42,730 nucleotides of DNA from contig JBFHWZ010000002.1 in NCBI GenBank assembly GCA_041599235.1, positions 1 to 42,730 of the forward strand, in the 5' to 3' direction. The translations under genes and the position numbers were made by a program. The notes under the pieces were generated by a model, which worked only from the letters and a program-made list of their open reading frames with translations, made no database searches and was not told where the DNA came from. This document shows, piece after piece, positions 19,790 through 39,577 of the stretch. The stretch is from Candidatus Woesearchaeota archaeon (GTDB lineage: Archaea > Nanobdellota > Nanobdellia > Woesearchaeales > ARS49). The stretch's first letter is position 1. Each line of letters starts with the position of its first letter.

Positions 19790-20464
19790 ATGGCAGCAGG
19801 CACTGTTTTTTTTATTGTTCTTATTGCAATTATTGTGATTACTGTGCTGCTGAGTTTTTTCAGCAAAGTCTTGCGCTTTGTGCTCCCTATACTATACTTT
19901 ATCCTGATTATTGTTGGCACTGTTATGGTCTTCAGTGATGCAGCTGACCTAAGAGATAACTTCCTCAAAGAAGACAAATTATTTGTTCTTGAAATGAACA
20001 ATGAAGCCACTGCAGCGTTTACAGTCAAAGGAACTGACCCTGCAGACATCATAACAGACCTTACCAACATCAAAGCAGTGCCATATGAAGACCTTGGCTA
20101 TTACAAAGTGCTGGTATTTACCTGGGATAGTTTTGAAACTATTGATAGTGTTCCTTTTAGCGGCAGAACCTTAACACGTGCAGAAGCACAACAAATTATG
20201 GATGCAGCTGAACCGCGTGCTTTGCTTGCGCAGCAATCCGATGTGCCTATTGCAGCAGTTAACCAAGCATATGTTTCTGATGACATGGTCAGAGGCGACT
20301 TGTTTGCGAATCTGGCAAGCGCAGCAGCTGATGAAGAATCAGTGGTTGTTGCACTTCATCAAGGAACTGTTTCGATTGTGCCTGAAACAATAAGCTTTAA
20401 ATTAATCAAGATCTTGCCATTAAGCATTGTAAAAAAATTATTGCCTGAAGATGACTTGGTTTGA
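19790..20464 (+). CDS. Hypothetical membrane protein (2 N-terminal TM helices)
   Basis: A TATA box lies 23 nt upstream (leaderless). The hydrophobic N-terminus is FFIVLIAIIVITVLLSFF / VLPILYFILIIVGTVMVF. The remainder is unrecognised. Confidence 0.55.
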   Translation: MAAGTVFFIVLIAIIVITVLLSFFSKVLRFVLPILYFILIIVGTVMVFSDAADLRDNFLKEDKLFVLEMNNEATAAFTVKGTDPADIITDLTNIKAVPYEDLGYYKVLVFTWDSFETIDSVPFSGRTLTRAEAQQIMDAAEPRALLAQQSDVPIAAVNQAYVSDDMVRGDLFANLASAAADEESVVVALHQGTVSIVPETISFKLIKILPLSIVKKLLPEDDLV

Positions 20465-20861
20465 TAAAATAAAATTTTGGAAAAAAGAGCCTGAGCTTTC
20501 ATTGCCTGAGGCAGTTGGTGCGCCACCGTTAGGGGGACCATCAGATTTAGACCGGCCTGCGCCATGGGGAGGTCCTTCAGCAGATGGACCGTCACCCTTA
20601 GGAGGCCTGCCTTCAGAAGGTCCGCCGCCATTAGCGGATGCAGAATCAATCCCCTTGCAGGGCAGAGGACAACCTGGATTTGGGCCTGCTGAGCGGCCTG
20701 TGCTTGGTGTTACGCCAAAACCAGAAGGCGGCAGTGTTGACAAAGAACTGCAATTAGTCAATGCCAAACTGGACACTATCAAAGCAGTAGTAGAAAGTAT
20801 CAATCAACGTTTAGAACGCATGGAAAAACCGCAGGAAAAAGAAGTTATTCAATGGCGCTGA
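20451..20861 (+). CDS. Pro/Gly-rich low-complexity protein with C-terminal amphipathic helix
   Basis: 136 aa with degenerate P-[PS]-L-G-G-x-[PS]-[SD] repeats, then KELQLVNAKLDTIKAVVESINQRLERMEK. It overlaps both neighbours (14 nt and 10 nt). Confidence 0.5.
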   Translation: MTWFDKIKFWKKEPELSLPEAVGAPPLGGPSDLDRPAPWGGPSADGPSPLGGLPSEGPPPLADAESIPLQGRGQPGFGPAERPVLGVTPKPEGGSVDKELQLVNAKLDTIKAVVESINQRLERMEKPQEKEVIQWR

Positions 20862-21301
20862 CAAAACCAGTAACTTTCTTTGGCATTAGTTCTCTGGTGG
20901 TTATCCTTGATGTTATTACTAAATACCTGGCAACTACCAGCTTAACCTTTGGTGAAAGCATAGCAGTAATCAAAAATTTCTTCCATATAACGCTTGTACA
21001 CAACTATGGGGTGAGCTTTGGCTTGTTCAATGACGCAAGCTTGCGTTGGCTCTGGGTTGGTGTAGGCATTGGCGCCATTATACTAATATTCTATTATTAT
21101 ACGCGCATTGAGAACATGATGCTTCTTATAGCAGCATCTTTTATTGTTGGCGGTGCTATAGGCAATGTCGCAGATCGTATTCTGCACGGCTTTGTCATAG
21201 ACTTTATTGACTTCCGCTTCTGGCCTGCGTTTAATATAGCAGATAGTGCCATAACAGTGGGGGCTGCCCTGCTTATTATATATTGGTGGGCATCTAAATA
21301 A
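20852..21301 (+). CDS. lspA: Lipoprotein signal peptidase (signal peptidase II)
   Basis: 149 aa with four TM segments. Signature motifs NYGVSFG and GGAIGNVADRI..GFVIDFIDF..WPAFNIADSAI are present. Confidence 0.85.
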   Translation: MALTKPVTFFGISSLVVILDVITKYLATTSLTFGESIAVIKNFFHITLVHNYGVSFGLFNDASLRWLWVGVGIGAIILIFYYYTRIENMMLLIAASFIVGGAIGNVADRILHGFVIDFIDFRFWPAFNIADSAITVGAALLIIYWWASK

Positions 21302-21316
21302 TAGACAAGCAAAACA

Positions 21317-21324
21317 TTTATATA
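21317..21324 (+). promoter_or_regulatory. TATA box (tttatata) of paralog-array promoter module 1
   Basis: aaaacatttatata, then about 30 nt, then aaacgaggtga SD, then the ATG. The same layout is seen at 21915 and 23192. Confidence 0.6.
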
Positions 21325-21369
21325 TTACTAGAGCAAAAGCTTAGTATATCCAAACGAGGTGAAAGTAAT

Positions 21370-21879
21370 ATGGCAGATGAAGGCAAAGGCATTGCATTAA
21401 CAATTCTAGGTATAGTGGCTGTTATAGCAATTGTAGGTCTAGTGCTCTTATTTACCGGCGCTGGCAGCGGCGGCGTTTCTGTACAAGAGAGAGCAATCTA
21501 TGGCGGACCAGTAAGTGACAGACTAGGGCTTCCTGTAGTTGAGTCCCGACAGCTCAGCGGCGGTCCACGAACAGAAGAAACAACCTATGGTCTCAAGCCA
21601 GGCAGCTTAGAAACAACTTCAAGCATTGAAGCTTACCGAGCACGAGATGTGTCAGAGAAAAAAGGCCTGACTGAAAGCTTCTTGATCAAAACCTGTCCAG
21701 GACTTGTTGAAATTGGCGAAGCGCGCGCAGGCAGAACCTTTGATGTAAACCAGCGACAAATTGACAGCGGCCAATTCAAAGCAGCAAACTGCCAATCCAC
21801 TACATTCAGCGGCTGGCCAATCTACCAAGTAACTGGCAATACATACTGCTGCAGCAAAGACGGCTTTGCAGTAGTATAA
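21370..21879 (+). CDS. Pilin-like Cys-motif paralog 1 (169 aa)
   Basis: MADEGKG|IALTILGIVAVIAIVGLVLLFTGAGSGG, IYGG, then TCPG...ANC...TYCC near the C-terminus. It has its own TATA (21317) and GAGGTGA SD. Confidence 0.7.
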   Translation: MADEGKGIALTILGIVAVIAIVGLVLLFTGAGSGGVSVQERAIYGGPVSDRLGLPVVESRQLSGGPRTEETTYGLKPGSLETTSSIEAYRARDVSEKKGLTESFLIKTCPGLVEIGEARAGRTFDVNQRQIDSGQFKAANCQSTTFSGWPIYQVTGNTYCCSKDGFAVV

Positions 21880-21907
21880 ATTTTTTCTTTTCTCTCTTCT
21901 TTTTTTA
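21880..21907 (+). terminator. T/C-rich oligo-T tract after paralog 1
   Basis: attttttcttttctctcttcttttttt, followed by the next TATA box. Confidence 0.45.
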
Positions 21908-21914
21908 CAAAACA

Positions 21915-21922
21915 TTTATATA
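21915..21922 (+). promoter_or_regulatory. TATA box (tttatata) of paralog-array promoter module 2
   Basis: aaaacatttatata, followed by an SD-like gaggt at 21957-21961. Confidence 0.6.
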
Positions 21923-21968
21923 GAAGAACGTGTGATATTCTCTCACTACTAAAAAAGAGGTTGATCAC

Positions 21969-22370
21969 ATGGCAGAAGACAAAAGCATTTCACTTGTAAT
22001 TCTAGGTATTGTTGCTATTTGCGCAGTAGTTGGTTTAGTGCTGCTGTTCAGCGGCGCTATTGGCGGCAAAGGCGTGTATGTCTTTGGCGAAGGCGGCAAA
22101 GGCACGTATTCACGCTATGTTAAAGCAAGCGGTGACGTGCCAACCTATGAAGGACCGCGCATCAGCGGCATTCAACACGGCGATCCTTATGCAGCAAGCA
22201 GCCCTGCAACAGCAAATCAAAGAATTGCGCCTTACAAAACAGCAAGCCAAGCAACCAATCCCTGCACGCCAGGTTCAGTTGCGCGACGCGCAGACGTAGC
22301 AGACTATTATGTAACTGACTTGCAAGGCGAAGAATGGGCTTGCACTTTCGCATTTTCATCAGGCGAATAA
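21969..22370 (+). CDS. Pilin-like paralog 2 (133 aa, divergent C-terminal motif)
   Basis: MAEDKSISLVILGIVAICAVVGLVLLFSGAIGG..., NPCTPG...WAC. It lacks the CC doublet. It has its own TATA (21915) and SD. Confidence 0.65.
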   Translation: MAEDKSISLVILGIVAICAVVGLVLLFSGAIGGKGVYVFGEGGKGTYSRYVKASGDVPTYEGPRISGIQHGDPYAASSPATANQRIAPYKTASQATNPCTPGSVARRADVADYYVTDLQGEEWACTFAFSSGE

Positions 22371-22371
22371 A

Positions 22372-22689
22372 ATGGATGACAAAGGCATTTCCTTAACCAT
22401 ATTAGGCATTGTTGCAGTTATTGCCATAGTCGGTCTAGTGCTCTTGTTCACAGGAGCAGGCACTGGCGGCATTATTATAGGTCAAAAAGCGCCAGTACAA
22501 ACCTGGGGCAAGGCAATACGAACAGTTTCTGCACAGCAATCCTGCTTCTTAAGCTCAGGAGCTCTTGGAACAGTTGTTGATGCGCTTGAATACCAGCAAC
22601 GCATAGCCAAAGGCCACTTCTGTGAAGCACGCCAAACAGTGTCAGGAATACAATCACAACAATGGTGCTGTGCGGGAGGAACTGCATGA
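22372..22689 (+). CDS. Pilin-like Cys-motif paralog 3 (105 aa)
   Basis: MDDKG|ISLTILGIVAVIAIVGLVLLFTGAGTGG, then SC...FC...QWCC. It starts 1 nt after the paralog 2 stop. Confidence 0.7.
   Translation: MDDKGISLTILGIVAVIAIVGLVLLFTGAGTGGIIIGQKAPVQTWGKAIRTVSAQQSCFLSSGALGTVVDALEYQQRIAKGHFCEARQTVSGIQSQQWCCAGGTA
22429..22470 (+). repeat. 42-nt segment, 41/42 identical to 23307-23348 (paralog 3 versus paralog 5 N-terminal helix/linker)
   Basis: gtcggtctagtgctcttgttcacaggagcaggcactggcggc. Confidence 0.85.
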
Positions 22690-23183
22690 ACGAAAACCAC
22701 ATAGCAATGACCATCTTGATTTCAGTTTCTGTTGTAGCAGCCTTAGGCTTAGTATTTCTCTATAGCTCAGAACAAACAGCACAAGTAGTGCTGTATGACT
22801 ATGGTGTGCAATCTATTTATGGCGGTGCAAAACGCCAAGCATACACGCCGCTTGGCCCAGCTCTTGAACAGCAAGAAAGCAGAAGGCTTGGAAGCCACTC
22901 TCAACAATACACGCCTGATGTAGTTTATGCAACAGCATCGCCAGGAGCGCACATTGCAACCTATGGCAAAGAATGGAGCAAGATTCCGGCCTGGGTAAGC
23001 GAAACAGGCTTCTGTGGCGTTTATGCAAATGGCCAGCCCCGAACAGGGCGTATTGATACTGCTGACAGGGCAGAGAAAAAAGATGAAGACTGCCTTCAGC
23101 TGGTTGGATTCGATGGCAGAGCTGTAGCGGGCAGAGTGTGCTGTCTAGATTCAGGACAGAGTAGTTTGCCGGGCAGTATTTGA
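22686..23183 (+). CDS. Pilin-like Cys-motif paralog 4 (165 aa, divergent N-terminus)
   Basis: MNENHIAMTILISVSVVAALGLVFLY, IYGG, FCG...DC...RVCC. ATG 22686 overlaps the paralog 3 stop as ATGA. The ORF-track start at 22662 is rejected. Confidence 0.65.
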   Translation: MNENHIAMTILISVSVVAALGLVFLYSSEQTAQVVLYDYGVQSIYGGAKRQAYTPLGPALEQQESRRLGSHSQQYTPDVVYATASPGAHIATYGKEWSKIPAWVSETGFCGVYANGQPRTGRIDTADRAEKKDEDCLQLVGFDGRAVAGRVCCLDSGQSSLPGSI

Positions 23184-23191
23184 GCAAAAGA

Positions 23192-23199
23192 TTTATATA
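23192..23199 (+). promoter_or_regulatory. TATA box (tttatata) of paralog-array promoter module 3
   Basis: aaaagatttatata, followed by aaacgaggtga at 23230-23239. Confidence 0.6.
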
Positions 23200-23246
23200 G
23201 TACTATTAGTAAAAGCAGTAATTATCTTAAACGAGGTGACCCTATT

Positions 23247-23657
23247 ATGGCAGAAGACAAAGGTATTTCACTAACAATTCTAGGAGTGGTTGCTGTTATA
23301 GCAATTGTCGGTCTTGTGCTCTTGTTCACAGGAGCAGGCACTGGCGGCTATGTAGCGCCAGGCAATAAAGTGTATGGAGGAGCAATCCAAGAAAAGCCAT
23401 ACCCATACTTGCAAGGCAGAAAAGTATCTGGCGTTGCAGGTGACCAGTACTCAGCACAGTACACATCAATACCAAGCATACCACAATCACGAGACCAGTA
23501 CAAAATTCCAAATCCAAGCGGCTGCCCAGCAGGAACTTATGGCTACACATCAACAGAAGTGCAGCTTGGCAGAGTGGATGCAAGCGCCTGCACTCCTAAT
23601 GAGATTGTTGCAGGAACATACTGCTGCACAGATCCACGCAGCGAATACATCAAATGA
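23247..23657 (+). CDS. Pilin-like Cys-motif paralog 5 (136 aa)
   Basis: MAEDKG|ISLTILGVVAVIAIVGLVLLFTGAGTGG, VYGG, GCPAG...AC...TYCC. It has its own TATA (23192) and GAGGTGA SD. Confidence 0.7.
   Translation: MAEDKGISLTILGVVAVIAIVGLVLLFTGAGTGGYVAPGNKVYGGAIQEKPYPYLQGRKVSGVAGDQYSAQYTSIPSIPQSRDQYKIPNPSGCPAGTYGYTSTEVQLGRVDASACTPNEIVAGTYCCTDPRSEYIK
23307..23348 (+). repeat. 42-nt segment, 41/42 identical to 22429-22470
   Basis: gtcggtcttgtgctcttgttcacaggagcaggcactggcggc. Confidence 0.85.
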
Positions 23658-23666
23658 GGTGATTAA

Positions 23667-24110
23667 ATGGCTGAACAAAAAGGACTATCATTAACTATTC
23701 TTGGCATTGTAGCAGTAGTAGCAATCCTCGGATTAGTGTTATTGTTCAAAACAGCAGTAACTGGCGGCTATGCATCTTCGTATGGCGCAAACAAGCTCTA
23801 TGGCGGCGGCATTGCTGTTGCAGGCGGAGCAAATGAGCCATGGACCCCAAGCTGGGTTGATGCAACTCCAATTACGTCTGAAGGAAATGTGGTTACTGTT
23901 GGTGGCCATGATGAAACCCGCGGCATAACAACTGCACGAAGCAACATCAAATCAGCTACCTGGAGACAAGCAGCAGACTTGACCCAGCCATGCGGTGCAA
24001 GCGGCAAAATTGAAGTTCCTTACAATCGCATCGGAGCATATGCCAACTGTGCTGGTCCTAATGCAAATGACCAGTACTGCTGCGATCCAATTGCGCAGCG
24101 AAACGTATAA
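23667..24110 (+). CDS. Pilin-like Cys-motif paralog 6 (147 aa)
   Basis: MAEQKG|LSLTILGIVAVVAILGLVLLFKTAVTGG, LYGG, PCGASG...NC...QYCC. GAGGTGA lies upstream. Confidence 0.7.
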   Translation: MAEQKGLSLTILGIVAVVAILGLVLLFKTAVTGGYASSYGANKLYGGGIAVAGGANEPWTPSWVDATPITSEGNVVTVGGHDETRGITTARSNIKSATWRQAADLTQPCGASGKIEVPYNRIGAYANCAGPNANDQYCCDPIAQRNV

Positions 24111-24131
24111 TTTTTTTATTTCCTCTTTTTT
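24111..24131 (+). terminator. Oligo-T tract after paralog 6
   Basis: tttttttatttcctctttttt. It may also hold a TATA-like tataattt for a leaderless paralog 7. Confidence 0.4.
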
Positions 24132-24479
24132 ATGGCAAAACACAATGAATTTATTATTCTAGGAATTGTTGCAGTTATTGCTGTTCTTGCCCTTGTTCTC
24201 TTGTACAAAATGCCTCAAACAGGCTATGGCATATATTCTGGCGGTGCAGAACCTGGCAGAGCAGCAGGTGTGCTGGTGCAAGAACGCTTAGTGGTTCCGC
24301 CAAGCACTCAAGGTGTTCCTGTATCTTATCAGCTGCGCAAAGGGGCTTTGCCTGAATTTGCTTCTGAACCATGCCCGCCTGGCTATAAACTGAGTGAATA
24401 TGCGACATTTGGTTGCCGCGAGCCAGCAGCTGCTGACTACTATGTTGGCGTTATGTGCTGCCCGTTCAGCAGTAAATAA
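24132..24479 (+). CDS. Pilin-like Cys-motif paralog 7 (115 aa, divergent leader)
   Basis: MAKHNEFIILGIVAVIAVLALVLLYK, IYSGG, PCPPG...GC...VMCC. Confidence 0.65.
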   Translation: MAKHNEFIILGIVAVIAVLALVLLYKMPQTGYGIYSGGAEPGRAAGVLVQERLVVPPSTQGVPVSYQLRKGALPEFASEPCPPGYKLSEYATFGCREPAAADYYVGVMCCPFSSK

Positions 24480-24533: not shown

Positions 24534-26321
24534 ATGGAACCAAAAGCAGAGGTGTGTTTTGAGATCTCCTGGGAAGTCTGCAATAAGGTCGGTGGCATCT
24601 ATACTGTTGTGAAATCCAAAGCAAACCGCATGCTTGAACAGTACAAAGAAAACTACTTTCTTGTTGGACCGTATTTTCCCCAAAAAGCATTTGGCATATT
24701 TGAAGAAACCATGCCGCCAGAGCACTGCAAGCCCTGCTTTGAGAAACTTAAACAAGAAGGCATTGAAGTGCATACCGGCAAATGGCTGATCAAAGGCGAG
24801 CCTAATGTGCTGCTCATTGATTTTACAAACTTTAATAAAAACACCAACGGCATCAAAAAAGCGCTGTGGGACACATATCAAGTTGATTCGTTAGGAACAG
24901 ACTATTATGACTTTGATGAGCCAGTTGTGTGGGCCTGGGCAGTTGGCAAAGTAATCGAAGAGCTTTCTGCAGTGTATGAAGGGAAAAAAATAGTTGCGCA
25001 TGCTCACGAATGGATGTCAGGAGCAGCACTGCTGTACTTGCGCTCAAAAAATGCGCCTGTTGGAACAGTATTCACCACCCATGCGACCATGCTGGGCAGA
25101 ACCCTTGCCAGCCAAAATGTAGATATCTATGGAACAACAATAGAAAATCCTGCTGAGGAAGCCAAAAAGCACGGTCCAGGCGTTAATGCCAAGTACCTTA
25201 TGGAAAAAACCTGTGCTAAACAAGCGCATGTGTTCACTACTGTCAGCGAGATAACAGGCATTGAAGCAGAAAAACTGCTGGGCGTCAAGCCGCAAGTATT
25301 GCTCTTTAATGGCTTAGATATTGAGAAATTCCCCAGCTTTGAAGAAGCAAGCACCCGACACCGCTTGTTCAAGAACAGAATCCAGGAATTTCTCATGTAT
25401 TATTTTTTCCCCTACTATCATTTTGACATAAAAAATACGCTCATCTATTTTATTGCCGGCAGATATGAATTCCGCGACAAAGGCGTTGATGTTTTTATCA
25501 AAGCGCTTGGCAGGCTTAATGAGATTCTTGTGAAAGAAAACTGCGAGACCACTATTGTTGCATTTTTCTGGATTCCTGGCAATGTGCGCGCCATCAGGCC
25601 AGAACTGCTTGAAAGCAAAACCTATTTTACTGACCTCAAAGACTCCCTTGCTGACGTTCGTGATTCTGTGCTGAATGAATTGCTCTACTTACTGGCAAGC
25701 GGCAATGAGATTACCAAAGAATCATTGTTAGATAAAGAGTTTCTTGCTGAAGTACGCCCAAAATTATTGCGGCTTAAGCGCAAAGGCAATCCGCCCTTAA
25801 GCACGCACGTGCTGCATGATGAAACCAATGATCAAATAGTGCAAGCATTGCGCGCAGTTGGCCTCGACAACGGGCCAGAAGACAAAGTGAAAGCAGTGTT
25901 TTATCCTATTTACCTGACTGGTGCTGATGGCTTGCTTGATACCAGTTATTATGAAAGCATGAGCGGTTCGCACCTTGGCGTTTTCCCGAGCTATTATGAG
26001 CCTTGGGGCTACACGCCTTTAGAAGCAGCAGCGCTTGGCGTGAGCTCAGTAACTACCGATCTTGCTGGATTTGGCAGGTATTTGTGCACTGAATGTGACC
26101 AAGGAAAATATCCTGGTGTTTTTGTCCTGGAACGCTTTGGCAAATCAGAAGATGAAATACTGCAGCAGCTTACTGAATTTCTGAGCAGGTTTGCGCACTT
26201 TTCTAAAAAAGAACGCGTAGAAAACAAAATCCAGGCGTATAAAACTGCTGCAGCTGCAGACTGGAAAAACTTTGTTGAACGCTATGTTAAAGCTCATAAC
26301 CTTGCTGTTCAGAACCAGTAA
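24534..26321 (+). CDS. Glycogen synthase, eukaryote-like GT3 family
   Basis: The N-terminus CFEISWEVCNKVGGIYTVVKSKA....YKENYFLVGPY matches the GT3 glycogen(starch) synthase signature (FEVAWEVANKVGGIYTV). 595 aa. Confidence 0.8.
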   Translation: MEPKAEVCFEISWEVCNKVGGIYTVVKSKANRMLEQYKENYFLVGPYFPQKAFGIFEETMPPEHCKPCFEKLKQEGIEVHTGKWLIKGEPNVLLIDFTNFNKNTNGIKKALWDTYQVDSLGTDYYDFDEPVVWAWAVGKVIEELSAVYEGKKIVAHAHEWMSGAALLYLRSKNAPVGTVFTTHATMLGRTLASQNVDIYGTTIENPAEEAKKHGPGVNAKYLMEKTCAKQAHVFTTVSEITGIEAEKLLGVKPQVLLFNGLDIEKFPSFEEASTRHRLFKNRIQEFLMYYFFPYYHFDIKNTLIYFIAGRYEFRDKGVDVFIKALGRLNEILVKENCETTIVAFFWIPGNVRAIRPELLESKTYFTDLKDSLADVRDSVLNELLYLLASGNEITKESLLDKEFLAEVRPKLLRLKRKGNPPLSTHVLHDETNDQIVQALRAVGLDNGPEDKVKAVFYPIYLTGADGLLDTSYYESMSGSHLGVFPSYYEPWGYTPLEAAALGVSSVTTDLAGFGRYLCTECDQGKYPGVFVLERFGKSEDEILQQLTEFLSRFAHFSKKERVENKIQAYKTAAAADWKNFVERYVKAHNLAVQNQ

Positions 26322-33971: not shown

Positions 33972-34586
33972 TTATTCTTTTTTATTTCCGAAATACTTGT
34001 AGATTGGCTGCTGTTCTTTGACCAGTTCTTTGTTGGCATGCCTGCTGAGGACATGGAATAAGGAACTGAGCCTATTAATATAGCGTAGAATGTCAGGATT
34101 GATGTTGTAATATTTGGTCAAGCGTACAATCAAACGCTCTGCGCGCCTGCACGTGGTCCTGCATAAGTGCAAAAAGCTTGCTGAAGTTGTGCCGCCCGGC
34201 AAGATAAATGCTTTTTGTATGGGCAGGTTTTTTTCTAAATCATCAATAAGCTGCTCAAGCTCATCAACATGGTCTGTGGTGACCACGGGCAAGGGCTTGC
34301 TCATGGATTGCGCTTTTTGGCACACGCTCGCCAGCTCTGCACCTAAGGTAAAGAGATCATTCTGCACAGTGCTCAGCGTTTGCCGAGCGTGCTCATCCTC
34401 GATAAATGCCAAGGTGACGCCAATGACTGCATTGAGCTCATCAAGCGTGCCATAGGCTTCAATGCGAATATCATCCTTTCTAACACGCTCGCCACCAACA
34501 AAACTGGTTTCTCCAGCATCACCTGTTCGGGTGTATAAACTCAACTGCACCCTCCGGTAGCACCGCATACATCGCAGATGGTGCAC
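33972..34586 (-). CDS. ATP:cob(I)alamin adenosyltransferase, PduO/MMAB type
   Basis: [41 protein letters not shown] is the canonical PduO-type N-terminus. The true start is probably nearer 34544-34568: ATG 34568, GTG 34550, or TTG 34544 forming a TTGA overlap with the nrdJ stop. Confidence 0.8.
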
Positions 34587-37525
34587 ACGCCGTTCTGGCG
34601 AACCATTTTAGCGCCGCAGCTGTGGCAGGACTCATCGCCTTTATAGCCTGCTGCTTTCACATCGCCAATTTCTGCTTCAGAACCATTGCTGGCAACAGCG
34701 ACCATAGGCCGTATGTCTTCTTCAGCTTCTTCCACGACCAGGGATGGTTCAGCCTGTTCAACAACCATTGACTCGTCTATCTGTTCGTTGCTTTCCAGCA
34801 AGCGCTTGAGCTCAGGATGATCCTGGAACGTAGTATTCAATGGCTGTGACAACTTGCTGCTGTCCCTGTAAAGCGCCACTGCTTTGCTCATGTGCTTCCA
34901 GGCAAAAGAATATGCTTCTTTGATATCTTCAACAGAAGAATCCCGCGACATGTTGATTGTTTTGCTGATTGCGCCTGAGATAAAGGGCTGTACTGCAGTG
35001 ACCATCTTCAGGTGGCCGTACGGGCTAATGTAGCGCTGGCCGTGAGCACCGCACTTGTTTGCGCAATCGAACACGGGCAAGTGCTCTGCTTTAAGGTGCG
35101 GTGCGCCTTCAACAGTCATGGTGCCGCAGACATAATCATTTGCTATGCTGATGTGTTCTTCAGAAAAGCCCAGTTCCTTGAGCATGTCAAACTCAGGATT
35201 GTTTAATTGTTCGTCGCTAAAGCCTAACTGCCTACAGAAGTCAGTGCCAAGCACCCATTGCGTAAAGGCGTACTTGATTTCAGACACTGTTGGCAATTGC
35301 TTTTCTAATGCTGCAAGCTGCTCATCGCCAAAGCCTTTTGCTTTCAAAATATCGGGGTTAATGGTTTCGCAGCCTGCAAGCGTGCCGCGTCCTAAGCAAT
35401 AGGTAATGACATCATTGATTTGTTCAGTGGTATAATCCAATCGCTTCAAGGCATTAGGCACTGACTGGTTAACGATCTTCAGATACCCGCCCCCTGCAAG
35501 TTTCTTGAACTTAACCAAGGCATAATCAGGCTCAACACCGGTGGTATCACAGTCCATGACCAGCGCAATGGTTCCTGTTGGCGCAATGACGGTCACTTGC
35601 GCATTTCGGTAGCCATGCTGTTCACCCAGCTCAAGCGCTTTGTCCCATGCATGATGCGCTGCCTCCAGCAATGCTGACGGGCACGTGTTTTGATCTAATG
35701 CATCTGGCTTGATGGTCAGACCCTCATAGGAGTCGTCATTGTAGGCAGCGCGGCGATGGTTTTTGATAACGCGCAGCATATGCTGCTTGTTTGGCTCATA
35801 GCCATCAAAGGTGCCCAGTTCGCGCGCCATTTCTGCACTGGTTGCATATGATTCTCCGCACATGATTGCAGTGATGGCGCCAGCAATTGCACGGCCCTTG
35901 TCACTATCGTATGGAATGCCCATGCGCATCAGCACACTGCCAATGTTCGCATAGCCCAAGCCAAGTGTCCTGTACTTGAAGGTCTTGAGCGCAACTTCTT
36001 TGCTTGGCAGTTGCGCCATAAGAACGGAAATCTCCAAAATAAGTGTCCACAAGCGCGTTGCGTGCTTAAAGCCCTCGATGTCAAACTCGCCTGTTTCGTC
36101 ATTGAATAAGGTGCCGAGATTAATACTGGCAAGGTTGCAGGCAGTATCGTCTAAGAACATGTATTCGCTGCACGGATTGCTTGCATTGATTTTGCCATCT
36201 TCTGGGCAGGTATGCCATTCATTGATGGTGGTGTCATACTGCACACCTGGATCAGCTGATGCCCAGGCGCAGTAGCCAACTTCTTCCCAGAGCTGCCGAG
36301 CAGGGATTTCTCTCATGACCTCGCCTGTTGTCCGCGCTTTGAGCTGCCACATGGTGCCATCTTCCACAGCAGCAAAGAATGCGTTGGGAATGCGTATGCT
36401 GTTGTTGCTGTTCTGGCCGCTGACCGTGAGGTATGCCTCATTGTTGTAGTCAGTGTCAAATGTTTCCAGCAACAGTTTTTTGTTTTGTTTACCAAGATCC
36501 ATGGCTCGCACAATGTAATTGAGCGGTACATGGTCATGTGCAGCAGCGCGCACTGCATGCGCAAGCGCCCTGTTATTGGTGATATCTGCATTTTCCTGCG
36601 CCAATGCAGTTACTTTGTCAAGATGCGCCTTCATGGTCGCTGCGCCAGTGACCAAGCTTGCCACTTTTTCTTCTTCCTTGACTTTCCACCAGATAAAGGT
36701 CTGGATTTCCGGATGGTCCATATCCAAACAGACCATTTTGGCAGCTCGTCGTGTTGTGCCGCCTGACTTGATGGAGCCTGCTGAGCGGTCAAACACTTTC
36801 AGGAATGACATAAGCCCTGATGAAACGCCGCCGCCTGAGAGCCGTTCTCCTGCGCCGCGCAAGGTTGAGAAGTTTGTGCCTGTTCCTGAGCCGTACTTGA
36901 AAATGCGTGCTTCGCGTGTTAAGACATCAAAGATGCTGCCTTCGTTCAGCAAGTCATCCCTGATCTTCTGAATAAAACACGCGTGCGGCTGCGGTCTGGT
37001 GTATGCATCCTTTGAGCGCGTGAGCTCTTTGGTATCAGGATCAACATAATAATGGCCTTGCGATGGACCGGTGATGTCATAGGCATACTGCAGGCCAGTA
37101 TTGAACCATTGCGGTGAATTAGGTGCAGCCATTTGGTGCAAGAGCATATACACCACTTCATCATAAAATGCTTTTGCATCAGCATCAGAAGCAAAGTACT
37201 TGTACTGATAGCCCCAACTTGCCCAGCAGCCTGCCAAGCGATGCACAACCTGCTTTACGCTTTGCTCAGCGCCATAGGTGGTGGTGCCTTTTTCATCAGT
37301 ATAGGGAACGCCTGCTTTGCGGAAATATTTTTGTGCAAGAATGTCAGTTGCCACTTGCGACCAGAACGTTGGCACTTCAACATCAGTCATCTCAAACACA
37401 ATGCTGCCATTAGGATTGCGAATAATAGAGCTGCGCTTCTCATAGGTCACGCTTTCGTACGGGTCAGTGCCATCTTTGGTGAAATACCGCGGTATTGCTA
37501 GTCCTCTATTTTTCTCGTCTGTCAT
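34541..37525 (-). CDS. nrdJ: Adenosylcobalamin-dependent (class II) ribonucleotide reductase, long form without ATP-cone
   Basis: 994 aa. The N-terminus is [19 protein letters not shown]...[24 protein letters not shown]. Redox Cys at PHACFI, the finger loop ASNPCSEY...ACNLASINL is intact, and there is a C-terminal Cys-rich tail CHSC...CTICDVCG. Confidence 0.9.
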
Positions 37526-37528
37526 TCT

Positions 37529-39577
37529 CTACACCTCTATTTTTAGCTTTTTTTTCGACTGTTGTGAACGCGAATGAATCAACTGCTGCTGGCTGCTGCC
37601 ATCGCGATACACGTGCACACTCTTGCAGCCCAGGGCATAGGCTCTTTTGTACACGTCCTCTATTTCATGTATGGTGGCTGTGGCTGGCAGGTTGATGGTT
37701 TTACTCACGCCATTATCAGTATGCTTTTGGAATGCTGCTTGCATGGCCAGATGCTCGCCAACACTGCAGTCTTGAGCAGTTACAAACAGACTGCGCCATT
37801 TTTCAGGAATTTCCTTGTTGCTGCGCACGCTGCCGGCAAGCGCAATTTTTTTCATAAGATCTGTTGAATAAAATCCTTCTTTGCGCGAAACAGTATCAAA
37901 GAGCGGAATCAGTTCAAAGGTTTCTGCTGTTGGCCCGCGCTTCAAGTAGCTGATAGCAAAATGGGGTTCAATGCCCTGGCTGCAGCCAGCAATGATGCTG
38001 GTGATGCCGCTTGCGCAAATGGTGGTCCTGCTTGCATTGCGCACTTTCTCGTTTTTACGCACATAGGTGCTTTTTCGGTAATGCGCGAACGTGCCCCTTT
38101 TTTTGGCAAGCTCCATGCTTGCGTTTTTTGCTTCAGTGCTCACATAGCGCATCACTTTTTCAGCAAGCTTCAGCGCTTCAGGATGATTATAGGGTATGCT
38201 TATTTTTATCAGCGCATCTGCCCAGCCAATGACGCCAACGCCAATACGCCGCGAGCCCTCCATGGCTTCTTTCATCTTCGGCAATGGATACAGGCAGACA
38301 TCAATAGCATTGTCAAGCAGGTGGACAGTGGTATGCACTGAGTGCCGCAGCTTTTCCCAATTGAAATCATCTTGCGCAACATGATTTGCGAGATTGATGC
38401 TTGCAGTAAAGCAGCCCTCATAGGGCAAGAGCGGATGCTCGCCCGTAGGGATGGTTGCTTCGATCAATGAGTCATCGAAAGGATTGGTCGGTGCCTTGTT
38501 CATGTTATTCAGAAAAACCGCTGCTGGATCGCCTGTTCGCCAGGCAAGTGTTGCCAGCATGTCCAGCACGCTCCTGGCACGAAGCTTATTCACTTCCTGC
38601 TTGGTGTTGGGGTCAATCAACGGATAGTCCCGGTCTTCAGCAACTGCTTTCATGAACTCTTTGGTGAGCAGCACTGAAAGCCCAAAGCTTTGCAGGTTTT
38701 CACTTTCTTTTGCAGTGATGAAGCTGATAATATCAGGATGGTGCACGCTCAAAAATGCCAAGTTGGTACCGTGCGGGTTTATCTGGTGCAAAGCCCGATC
38801 ATACAACCGCAAGAAGGCAACAGGACCTGAGGCGCCAGCGCCTTGCGTGATTGAGCTGCCTTTTGCCCGTACTGGTGAAAAGGAAAGGCCCAGGCCAAAG
38901 CCGCGCTGCTGGTTTTTGTGCAGCAATGATGCTTGCTTGAGCGTATCAAACAGTCCTGCAATGTCATCGTGTACTGGCAGCACAAACCCATCGCTCAGCA
39001 GGGGCTGATCAGTGCCTGCATGGCGCAGTATGCTTATGCTGGGAATCATATCGCGATTAGTCATGAGGTTAGCAAACAAGTGCTCTGTTTTCTGCTGGTC
39101 GCCGCTGTATTTTTTTTCTGCCTGCGCCAGTGCTGCTGCAACGCGCTCAAACATCTGCCGTGGCGTCTCTTGCTTGTTGTTCTTGGTTTGCAGCAAGCCA
39201 TACTGCCTGAGAATCTTCAGCGCATCAAAGGAAAGCTTGAGATCATCTTCCACGCCGAGCGCTGATTTGGTTTCGCGCAGTTCCTGGCGCTTTTGCCGGT
39301 ACAAGATATATGACTTGGCAGTCTGGCTGTGCCCATGCTCAATCAGCGCTTCTTCAACACTGTCCTGCACATCTTCAACTGCAGGTATTTTATTTTTGAA
39401 CTTCTGCTCAACTTTTTTGACAACCAGCTCAGCTACAGTGATCACTTCATCAGGCCCGCCTTCACCTGTTGCTGAAAATGCCCGCTCAAGCGCATACGCT
39501 ACTTTGGTGGGGTCAAATGGCACAACGCTGCCATTACGCTTTCTGACTTTTGTTAATGTTGGGCTGTTAAGGTCCAT
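37529..39577 (-). CDS. Class II RNR paralog with N-terminal ATP-cone but substituted catalytic residues (putative pseudo-enzyme)
   Basis: ATP-cone: VRKRNGSVVPFDPTKV...VEDVQDSVEEALIE...AKSYILYRQKR. The RNR core aligns well, but SDGFVLPV replaces SACFV.PV and EATIPTGEH...GCFTASINL replaces sTNPCGE...aCNLgSINL. Confidence 0.75.
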   Translation of the reverse strand: MDLNSPTLTKVRKRNGSVVPFDPTKVAYALERAFSATGEGGPDEVITVAELVVKKVEQKFKNKIPAVEDVQDSVEEALIEHGHSQTAKSYILYRQKRQELRETKSALGVEDDLKLSFDALKILRQYGLLQTKNNKQETPRQMFERVAAALAQAEKKYSGDQQKTEHLFANLMTNRDMIPSISILRHAGTDQPLLSDGFVLPVHDDIAGLFDTLKQASLLHKNQQRGFGLGLSFSPVRAKGSSITQGAGASGPVAFLRLYDRALHQINPHGTNLAFLSVHHPDIISFITAKESENLQSFGLSVLLTKEFMKAVAEDRDYPLIDPNTKQEVNKLRARSVLDMLATLAWRTGDPAAVFLNNMNKAPTNPFDDSLIEATIPTGEHPLLPYEGCFTASINLANHVAQDDFNWEKLRHSVHTTVHLLDNAIDVCLYPLPKMKEAMEGSRRIGVGVIGWADALIKISIPYNHPEALKLAEKVMRYVSTEAKNASMELAKKRGTFAHYRKSTYVRKNEKVRNASRTTICASGITSIIAGCSQGIEPHFAISYLKRGPTAETFELIPLFDTVSRKEGFYSTDLMKKIALAGSVRSNKEIPEKWRSLFVTAQDCSVGEHLAMQAAFQKHTDNGVSKTINLPATATIHEIEDVYKRAYALGCKSVHVYRDGSSQQQLIHSRSQQSKKKLKIEV

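Follow-up and report, generated by a model that had tools for sequence, protein, structure and literature searches.

The 42.7-kb window analysed here is one entire contig (JBFHWZ010000002.1; 42,730 nucleotides) of an archaeon of the Candidatus Woesearchaeota. At positions 21370–24479 of its + strand lies an array of seven neighbouring genes in the same orientation, P1 to P7. An earlier annotation made from the DNA letters alone (the sequence-only reading) had described them as tandem paralogues with one architecture. All seven are present in the list of open reading frames (ORFs), and an alignment and residue maps bear the description out. The common plan is a leader of 4–7 residues, a 21-residue hydrophobic helix (ISLTILGIVAVIAIVGLVLLF is an example from the array), a stretch rich in Gly, Tyr and Pro, and a C-terminal Cys module. 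A profile of the family yields hundreds of relatives, and the helix is kept as protein while its synonymous sites differ. Hence, the pattern is far beyond chance.

The copies are not equally close (Table 1). The helices of P1, P3, P5 and P6 are 81–95% identical to one another and 71–81% identical to that of P2; pairs that include P4 or P7 reach 43–62%. The motif K-G-[IL]-[SA]-L-T occurs in P1, P3, P5 and P6, in agreement with the four copies counted in the sequence-only reading. Of the Gly-rich linker that it gave for the array, TGAG[ST]GG holds for P1, P3 and P5 only, and [IVL]YGG for P1, P4, P5 and P6 only. Its Cys counts were right: six copies have four Cys after the helix and P2 has two, with a further Cys within the P2 helix. 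The six four-Cys copies end, in array order, with YCC, WCC, VCC, YCC, YCC and MCC. Between helix and Cys module the paralogues do not align with one another, as had also been claimed. The mechanical ORF list begins P4 further upstream, at 22662, but the start is most likely the ATG at 22686, because it and the P3 stop overlap in the sequence ATGA, and it agrees with the MKENH start of the orthologues.

Table 1. Array, flanking genes and promoter-like elements of the window (positions count from the first letter of the contig; Cys residues are numbered within each protein).
Feature	Positions	Strand	Length (aa)	Leader	Helix	Stalk	Cys module	Cys residues	Remarks
Unknown membrane protein	19790–20464								Overlapping-gene operon with lspA, upstream of array
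Pro/Gly-rich coiled-coil protein	20451–20861								Same operon
lspA	20852–21301	+							PF01252, E 2.6e-37; directly upstream of array
TATA-box-like ATTTATATA	21316–21324	+							54 nt 5ʹ of P1 ATG
Shine-Dalgarno-like GAGGTGA	about 21356–21362	+							5ʹ of P1
P1	21370–21879	+	169	MADEGKG	21391–21453	21454–21693	21694–21876	109, 141, 160, 161	T-rich run after stop
TATA-box-like	21914–21922	+							55 nt 5ʹ of P2 ATG; head of putative P2-P3-P4 unit
P2	21969–22370	+	133	MAEDKS	21987–22049		22263–22367	99, 125, plus one inside helix	Orthologues in L001 and L002
P3	22372–22689	+	105	MDDKG	22387–22449		22543–22686	58, 84, 99, 100	Begins 1 nt past P2 stop; in subfamily alignment A4
P4	22686–23183	+	165	MNENH, without [KR][GAS]	22701–22763 (diverged)		23013–23180	110, 136, 152, 153	
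TATA-box-like	23191–23199	+							56 nt 5ʹ of P5 ATG; head of putative P5-P6(-P7) unit
GAGGTGA	about 23234	+							5ʹ of P5
P5	23247–23657	+	136	MAEDKG	23265–23327	23328–23522	23523–23654	93, 115, 126, 127	
P6	23667–24110	+	147	MAEQKG	23685–23747		23991–24107	109, 128, 138, 139	T-rich run after stop
P7	24132–24479	+	115	MAKH(NE), without [KR][GAS]	24144–24206 (diverged)		24372–24476	81, 95, 109, 110	Missing from both syntenic contigs
GT3 glycogen synthase	24534–26321								PF05693, E 2.6e-153; directly downstream of array
Ribonucleotide reductase	34541–37525	−							
Ribonucleotide reductase	37529–39577	−							Adjacent to the preceding gene

The seven genes belong to a large family. A profile of the seven copies, with 8000 candidates scored from a collection of 5.8 billion proteins, finds at least 364 proteins at E ≤ 1e-3; the few with names are annotated as hypothetical, and Pfam domains are absent from all of them. 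An exhaustive hidden Markov model (HMM) scan of 1.84 billion representatives gives 487 clusters (50% identity) at E ≤ 1e-3, of which 212 reach E ≤ 1e-10. In the 150 clusters listed, the match begins within the first 14 residues, mostly at residue 1 or 2, and the proteins are 51–240 aa long. A scan of one genome per species gives 75 loci; with the window and two syntenic contigs (L001 and L002) we analysed 78 loci, in which members were called with a local N-terminal HMM. These loci hold 271 members in 90 arrays: 23 singletons, 30 pairs, and otherwise 3–12 copies. One metagenome-assembled genome (MAG) can have several arrays, for example WJJT01 with 11, 3 and 4 copies.

Nearly all named relatives come from Candidatus Woesearchaeota or Nanoarchaeia MAGs, with one record titled Aenigmatarchaeota. 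The organism is a DPANN archaeon of Woesearchaeota type, in keeping with the likely host-dependent archaeon of the sequence-only reading. Many TPA MAGs titled “uncultured Methanosarcinales archaeon” (L004, L006–L011, L015, L020, L022 and others) share the lspA–array–glycogen synthase synteny with Woesearchaeota, and these titles are probably placeholders or wrong taxonomy.

We found no known homologue. Pfam and NCBIfam scans of the seven proteins gave no match at E < 1e-4 and none above a family's own cut-off, and the family clusters have no match in Pfam, NCBIfam or the PDB. A sequence profile search of the PDB returned only chance matches to transmembrane helices (PsbJ), at E 0.69 and above, and Foldseek found no match to the P5 model in the PDB below E 1. 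Confident homology of the ectodomains to a known family, set beforehand as the finding that would count against a novel family, was not detected; the P1 ectodomain matches only its own two orthologues. A full-text search of the published literature found no description of the family. In the libraries and literature searched, the family thus seems to lack any description, as the sequence-only reading had supposed. Other small Cys-rich proteins with a hydrophobic N-terminus, one of 171 aa with 12 Cys, are interspersed in arrays and fall outside the family HMM (L011, L012, L014, L018, L021, L026, L030 and other loci; clusters 10, 35, 50, 52, 53 and 100). They are probably more distant relatives, in which case the superfamily would be larger than counted.

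The helix is closely conserved. In the best 118 matches, every position of its 17-residue core, ILGIVAVIAIVGLVLLF, except the tenth (I/V) is at least 87% identical, and small residues recur at every third position. The ratio of nonsynonymous to synonymous substitution (dN/dS) for leader and helix is 0.02–0.15 between the window genes and their orthologues in L001 and L002, with dS of 0.5–3, near saturation, and 0.12 in 49 independent closer pairs. Between P1, P3, P5 and P6 the proportion of synonymous differences (pS) is 0.39–0.81 despite helix identities of 81–95%. Gene conversion as the cause of helix conservation is ruled out by synonymous sites this close to saturation. Hence, the helix is under purifying selection for its amino acids. 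Such constraint would not be expected of a segment that serves merely for anchoring or targeting, and the helix must therefore make sequence-specific contacts. The hydrophobic run is 21–23 residues, which is transmembrane length; the cores of lipoprotein signals in the same loci are visibly shorter (roughly 10–15 residues, judged by eye).

The C-terminal part of the proteins is constrained in a different manner. After the helix, all 265 distinct members have an even number of Cys: none in 18, two in 38, four in 193, six in 15 and ten in one. Of 113 independent representatives, 112 also have an even count; the remaining one resembles a frameshifted orthologue of P2. Among four-Cys members, 143 have the C-C-CC layout, spaced as C-x(8-50)-C-x(9-42)-CC, with median gaps of 29 and 14 residues and a median tail of 8; the residue before the CC is mostly Y, W or F. 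The Cys pattern noted in the window thus recurs in many homologues.

There is also a marked shortage of N-glycosylation sites. Relative to expectations from sequence shuffles, N-x-S/T sequons are about 9-fold depleted in the 265 family ectodomains (16 seen, 142 ± 11 expected), and the 113 independent representatives have 10 against 68 ± 8 expected. Control motifs in the same ectodomains are near expectation ([ST]xN 165 versus 142, QxS/T 177 versus 192, DxS/T 188 versus 160). Other proteins of the loci show no comparable shortage: the 875 neighbouring proteins have 1267 sequons for 1073 expected, proteins with a hydrophobic N-terminus outside the family 268 for 201, and large surface proteins 197 for 73, a 2.7-fold enrichment. 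Only lipobox proteins are moderately depleted (27 seen, 47 ± 6 expected). Classes of surface protein in these archaea seem to vary in sequon content. Because Cys counts are always even and sequons strongly depleted in the family, we infer that the C-terminal part lies outside the cell and is disulfide-bonded.

How do the ectodomains evolve? The sequence-only reading called them hypervariable, a term that the related contigs do not support. In both L001 and L002, six orthologues follow one another in the order seen in the window, flanked by the same lspA and glycogen synthase genes, and P7 is the extra copy in the window. P1 is 75–77% identical overall to its orthologues (P0007 and P0004). For the region between helix and first Cys, hereafter the stalk, orthologues are 53–86% identical with dN/dS of 0.10–0.50; for the Cys module the figures are 24–67% and 0.14–0.73; in both cases dS is saturated. 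In 49 closer pairs dN/dS is 0.17 for stalk and Cys module alike. Diversifying selection on the Cys module was considered and is unsupported by these values. The comparison of copy number and dN/dS at syntenic loci that the sequence-only reading had called for thus gives conserved order, one extra copy, and purifying selection throughout, with the Cys-bounded loops as the fastest-evolving part. A search with the P1 ectodomain alone finds just its two orthologues among 5.8 billion proteins, which argues that each paralogue is an old, distinct lineage, conserved but narrowly distributed.

Predicted structure is consistent with this division. An AlphaFold2 model of P5 (119 family sequences) has a confident helix at residues 5–28, a low-confidence stretch at residues 29–90 (pLDDT 44–61), and a confident module at residues 91–130 (pLDDT 83–90) of strand-helix-strand-strand order that holds the four Cys. 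The P3 model, made with the subfamily alignment, has a pLDDT of 50.6 and is unusable beyond the helix.

What might such proteins do? We tentatively favour the view, which we regard as plausible rather than probable, that they are membrane-tethered, glycan-free surface proteins stapled by disulfides, and that the invariant N-terminal helix is a shared module for assembly or docking. Each gene would encode a small single-pass surface protein of about 100–170 aa. Its 21-residue helix would insert in the membrane, the short leader facing inwards and the remainder outwards, and would stay there as the anchor. Being near-invariant, the helix would act as the docking module through which paralogues pack on each other or on a common membrane partner. 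On the outer face, a stalk free of glycans, rich in Gly, Tyr and Pro and marked by the conserved motifs TG and YGG, would bear a head of 35–60 residues, in which two disulfides tie the first and second Cys to the C-terminal CC. The head and stalk of each paralogue would presumably confer a binding specificity of its own, for example in attachment to a partner cell or a surface. Surface proteins with a type II signal anchor are similar in having an N-terminal segment of transmembrane length, a flexible membrane-proximal stalk and an extracellular domain with paired Cys. The family departs from ordinary proteins of that type in having a helix that stays invariant across its hundreds of paralogues, in forming tandem arrays with as many as 12 copies, and in strongly avoiding sequons.

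Several observations weigh against this proposal. The charge balance does not clearly favour an inside leader, since the mean charge is −0.48 for the leader and +0.71 for the 12 residues past the helix. A plain anchor has no need of a near-invariant sequence, and assembly between helices is assumed. The stalk is 53–86% identical among orthologues, so that “disordered” may be the wrong word for it. Lastly, G is found at −1 of the helix in 131 of 271 members (48%) and K or R at −2 in 233 of 271 (86%), which exceeds a simple positive flank and fits class III processing.

This last point leads to the main rival reading, that the proteins are true type IV pilin-like subunits, a real possibility but in our view a doubtful one. 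A PibD/FlaK-type peptidase would cut the 5–7-residue leader after [KR]-[GAS] and the helix would form the core of a filament, with the ATPase and platform encoded elsewhere. The paralogues would be alternative major subunits or a set of minor pilins, and the head would correspond to the bacterial D-region. The six PilA pilins of Haloferax volcanii offer a precedent: their H-domains, required for assembly, are almost the same in sequence, and their genes lie apart from the pilus genes (PMC4371748). The family resembles PilA1–6 in its short leader, in the [KR]-[GAS] of many members, in a helix of about 21 residues that is near-identical among paralogues with differing C-terminal parts, and in having several paralogues per genome unlinked to assembly genes. 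Archaeal class III signals require G, A or S at −1 and a charged residue at −2 (PMC4371748). A [KR][GAS] pair stands right before the helix in P1, P2, P3, P5 and P6, and in 151 of 271 members overall (56%), with at least one such canonical member in 73 of the 90 arrays. Canonical members also have the best-kept helices (0.83 versus 0.60 identity to the consensus; p 2e-28). The helix is under strong amino-acid selection, as are pilin H-domains, and the conserved gene order in operons of paralogues is reminiscent of minor-pilin sets. Type IV filament systems have been reported in some DPANN archaea and Nanoarchaeota (bioRxiv 10.64898/2026.04.22.720090).

Other evidence is at odds with pilins. 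The class III prepilin motif, proposed in the sequence-only reading for four copies, is present in five of the window, but G, A or S at −1 is replaced by N, E, K, H or D in 44% of members, including P4 (NH), P7 (KH-NE) and whole arrays of 11–12 copies. Dedicated assembly ATPases and platform proteins are often encoded close to pilins. Neither the Walker A motif of secretion ATPases nor the A24 peptidase motif (GxGDxK) was found in the ORFs of the 78 loci, that is, in the gene neighbourhoods of the 90 arrays (about 1.15 Mb), so that no peptidase or ATPase can be tied to the family from these neighbourhoods. Pilus-related Pfam domains are likewise lacking among the window genes and the recurrent neighbours, which are housekeeping genes. 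Pfam and NCBIfam models of pilins, archaellins and class III signals give no match at E up to 10, and the PDB matches up to E 10 include no solved pilin. In the P5 model the helix reaches only to residue 28, where TGAGTGG lies, and leads into the low-confidence stretch rather than a helix-on-sheet pilin fold, in which a long N-terminal helix packs with its C-terminal half on a beta-sheet domain. Characterised archaeal pilins usually bear N-glycosylation sites (PMC4371748), whereas this family avoids them. The pilin-type logic put forward earlier thus finds no support in likeness to pilins or archaellins in sequence or fold, and the predicted helix halts at a Gly-rich break. Together, these observations describe a family that is partly like pilins: it has an H-domain-type helix conserved among paralogues under selection, a cleavage motif in about half of its members, and neither detectable homology nor linked machinery. 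Membership among the pilins is not established. The comparison with the D-region of bacterial type IVa pilins is an analogy only, with no homology detected. In both cases a C-terminal Cys-bounded loop evolves fastest (here the module at 24–67% identity versus the stalk at 53–86%), but the family would have two disulfides with a vicinal CC instead of one loop, in a separate mini-domain on a stalk.

A bolder extension of the proposed docking role, to which we attach only a small probability, is that the proteins are subunits of a surface organelle specific to Woesearchaeota. Between six and twelve different paralogues would join by way of their near-identical helices to form a filament or a bundle embedded in the membrane, presenting glycan-free stapled heads for attachment to partner cells. 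Such an organelle would be built by unlinked type IV filament machinery with relaxed leader needs, or by an undescribed mechanism.

An alternative explanation for the conserved N-terminal segment is that it is a long Sec signal, cut past the helix by signal peptidase I (for example, after TGA) to release small disulfide-rich proteins. Sec class I signals have a hydrophobic core of about 7–15 residues, followed by a small-x-small cleavage site. Small residues do follow the helix, as [TKS]-G-A and then T-G (this last G is present in 241 of 271 members), which keeps the option of a cleaved signal alive. The combination of a C-C-CC framework and a variable mature part also recalls toxin families with conserved signals, and the P1 ectodomain has only two relatives in the whole database. 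In conotoxin superfamilies, a conserved N-terminal signal precedes a variable mature peptide with a fixed Cys framework that includes a CC pair. The likeness to conotoxin-type peptides, no more than an analogy, lies in the conserved hydrophobic N-terminus, the variable region and the fixed framework with CC. The family differs in that its segment is of transmembrane length and conserved in amino-acid sequence, and its orthologues are under purifying selection. The hydrophobic run (21–23 residues) is visibly longer than the signal cores of the lipoproteins from these loci. In addition, about 25% of members have K at what would be position −3, and purifying selection on amino acids is hard to explain for a segment that is discarded. 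Hence, a cleaved Sec signal is unlikely.

Two further explanations have very little in their favour. The first is that the array products are substrates of the adjacent LspA-like peptidase, with LLF-[TS]-G-A as a lipobox that lacks Cys. A regular lipobox reads [LVI][ASTVI][GAS]-C and closes the hydrophobic core of the signal peptide. An lspA gene is directly upstream and co-oriented in about 37 of the 78 loci, and the LspA of the window keeps both catalytic Asp motifs, GNVADR and FNIAD, as read from its translation. However, a Cys at the helix end is missing from every member (the first Cys of four-Cys members is at least 16 residues further on), the same loci have 36 ORFs with classical lipobox signal peptides that would be ordinary LspA substrates, and adjacency to lspA is part of a longer housekeeping block, with many arrays elsewhere without lspA. 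We therefore rejected LspA as the processing enzyme, which has only a very slight chance of being right. The second, the reverse topology in which the N-terminus is outside and four Cys bind metal in the cytoplasm, is hardly credible: it would suit the acidic leader (−0.48) and basic post-helix flank (+0.71), but leaves the 9-fold sequon depletion unexplained, since such selective avoidance is sensible only for a domain that meets the glycosylation machinery, and the Cys spacing is unlike metal-binding knuckles, with 2- and 6-Cys variants but no odd count.

The array has putative promoters. The motif WTTTATATA occurs six times in the window versus 0.42 expected, and three of the six lie 54–56 nt upstream of P1, P2 and P5. 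Since TATA-like elements precede these three genes and T-rich runs follow P1 and P6, the sequence suggests three transcription units, namely P1, P2-P3-P4 and P5-P6(-P7).

The position of the array after an operon that ends in lspA was correctly described in the sequence-only reading; it is part of a wider conserved housekeeping block that also holds genes for glycogen synthase, iPGM, PRPP synthetase and enolase. Other arrays adjoin ProRS/Alba, aIF2-gamma, OapC or GalT genes. The eukaryote-like GT3 glycogen synthase that follows P7 is in the same place in about 31 related loci. The window also encodes an XPD helicase, DUF460, RtcA, Trm1, GINS, aIF2-alpha, two ribonucleotide reductases, enolase, iPGM and the GT3-type glycogen synthase, a gene set that marks the organism as an archaeon. 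One of the adjacent ribonucleotide reductases, a 994-aa class II-type enzyme, matches the barrel domain in two separate stretches and may contain an insertion such as an intein. Searches of the window for tRNA genes and Rfam families found none. Origin of the array from a mobile element or virus was rejected, as there are no relatives in the viral contigs of IMG/VR and no compositional anomaly over the array.

Several neighbours in related loci may bear on the cell surface. A bacterial-type signal peptidase II is present in this archaeal lineage, in a conserved operon with the membrane protein and the Pro/Gly-rich coiled-coil protein, and the 36 lipobox ORFs are spread over related loci (L007, L049, L051, L055, L065, L072, L074, L076 and others); these sequence features point to bacterial-style lipoprotein processing in Woesearchaeota. 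In L060 (15276–19295) and its relatives (cluster 67), a sequon-rich protein of roughly 1300 aa with a C-terminal membrane anchor adjoins arrays of 11–12 copies. Its sequence, repetitive and rich in Asn, suggests a surface protein of beta-helix repeats, perhaps an S-layer protein or adhesin. A GAF-GGDEF diguanylate cyclase (PF00990, E 6.5e-45; for example, L071 10558–11547) directly adjoins a single family member, with a DHH/DHHA1 phosphoesterase and a PhoU/AbrB-like protein on the other flank. This arrangement is kept in about 7–8 Woesearchaeota loci, including L047, L058, L063, L064, L066, L067 and L071. To our knowledge, GGDEF proteins have rarely been reported in archaea; adhesion in bacteria is often under the control of c-di-GMP.

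Among DPANN archaea, the Woesearchaeota are abundant and uncultured, have small genomes, and are thought to live attached to other cells. We know of no surface molecules described for them. The family reported here is specific to this lineage, stands behind strong promoter-like elements, and has at least 18 copies in one MAG. Its paired Cys, avoidance of glycosylation sites and invariant helix are the marks of an exposed, constrained surface protein, and make it a concrete candidate for the apparatus of attachment or surface assembly in Woesearchaeota. The family is, in addition, a testable example of a pilin-like helix that may work with pilus machinery or without it. More generally, the signature of even Cys counts and sequon depletion could be reused to infer the topology of other archaeal proteins of unknown function.

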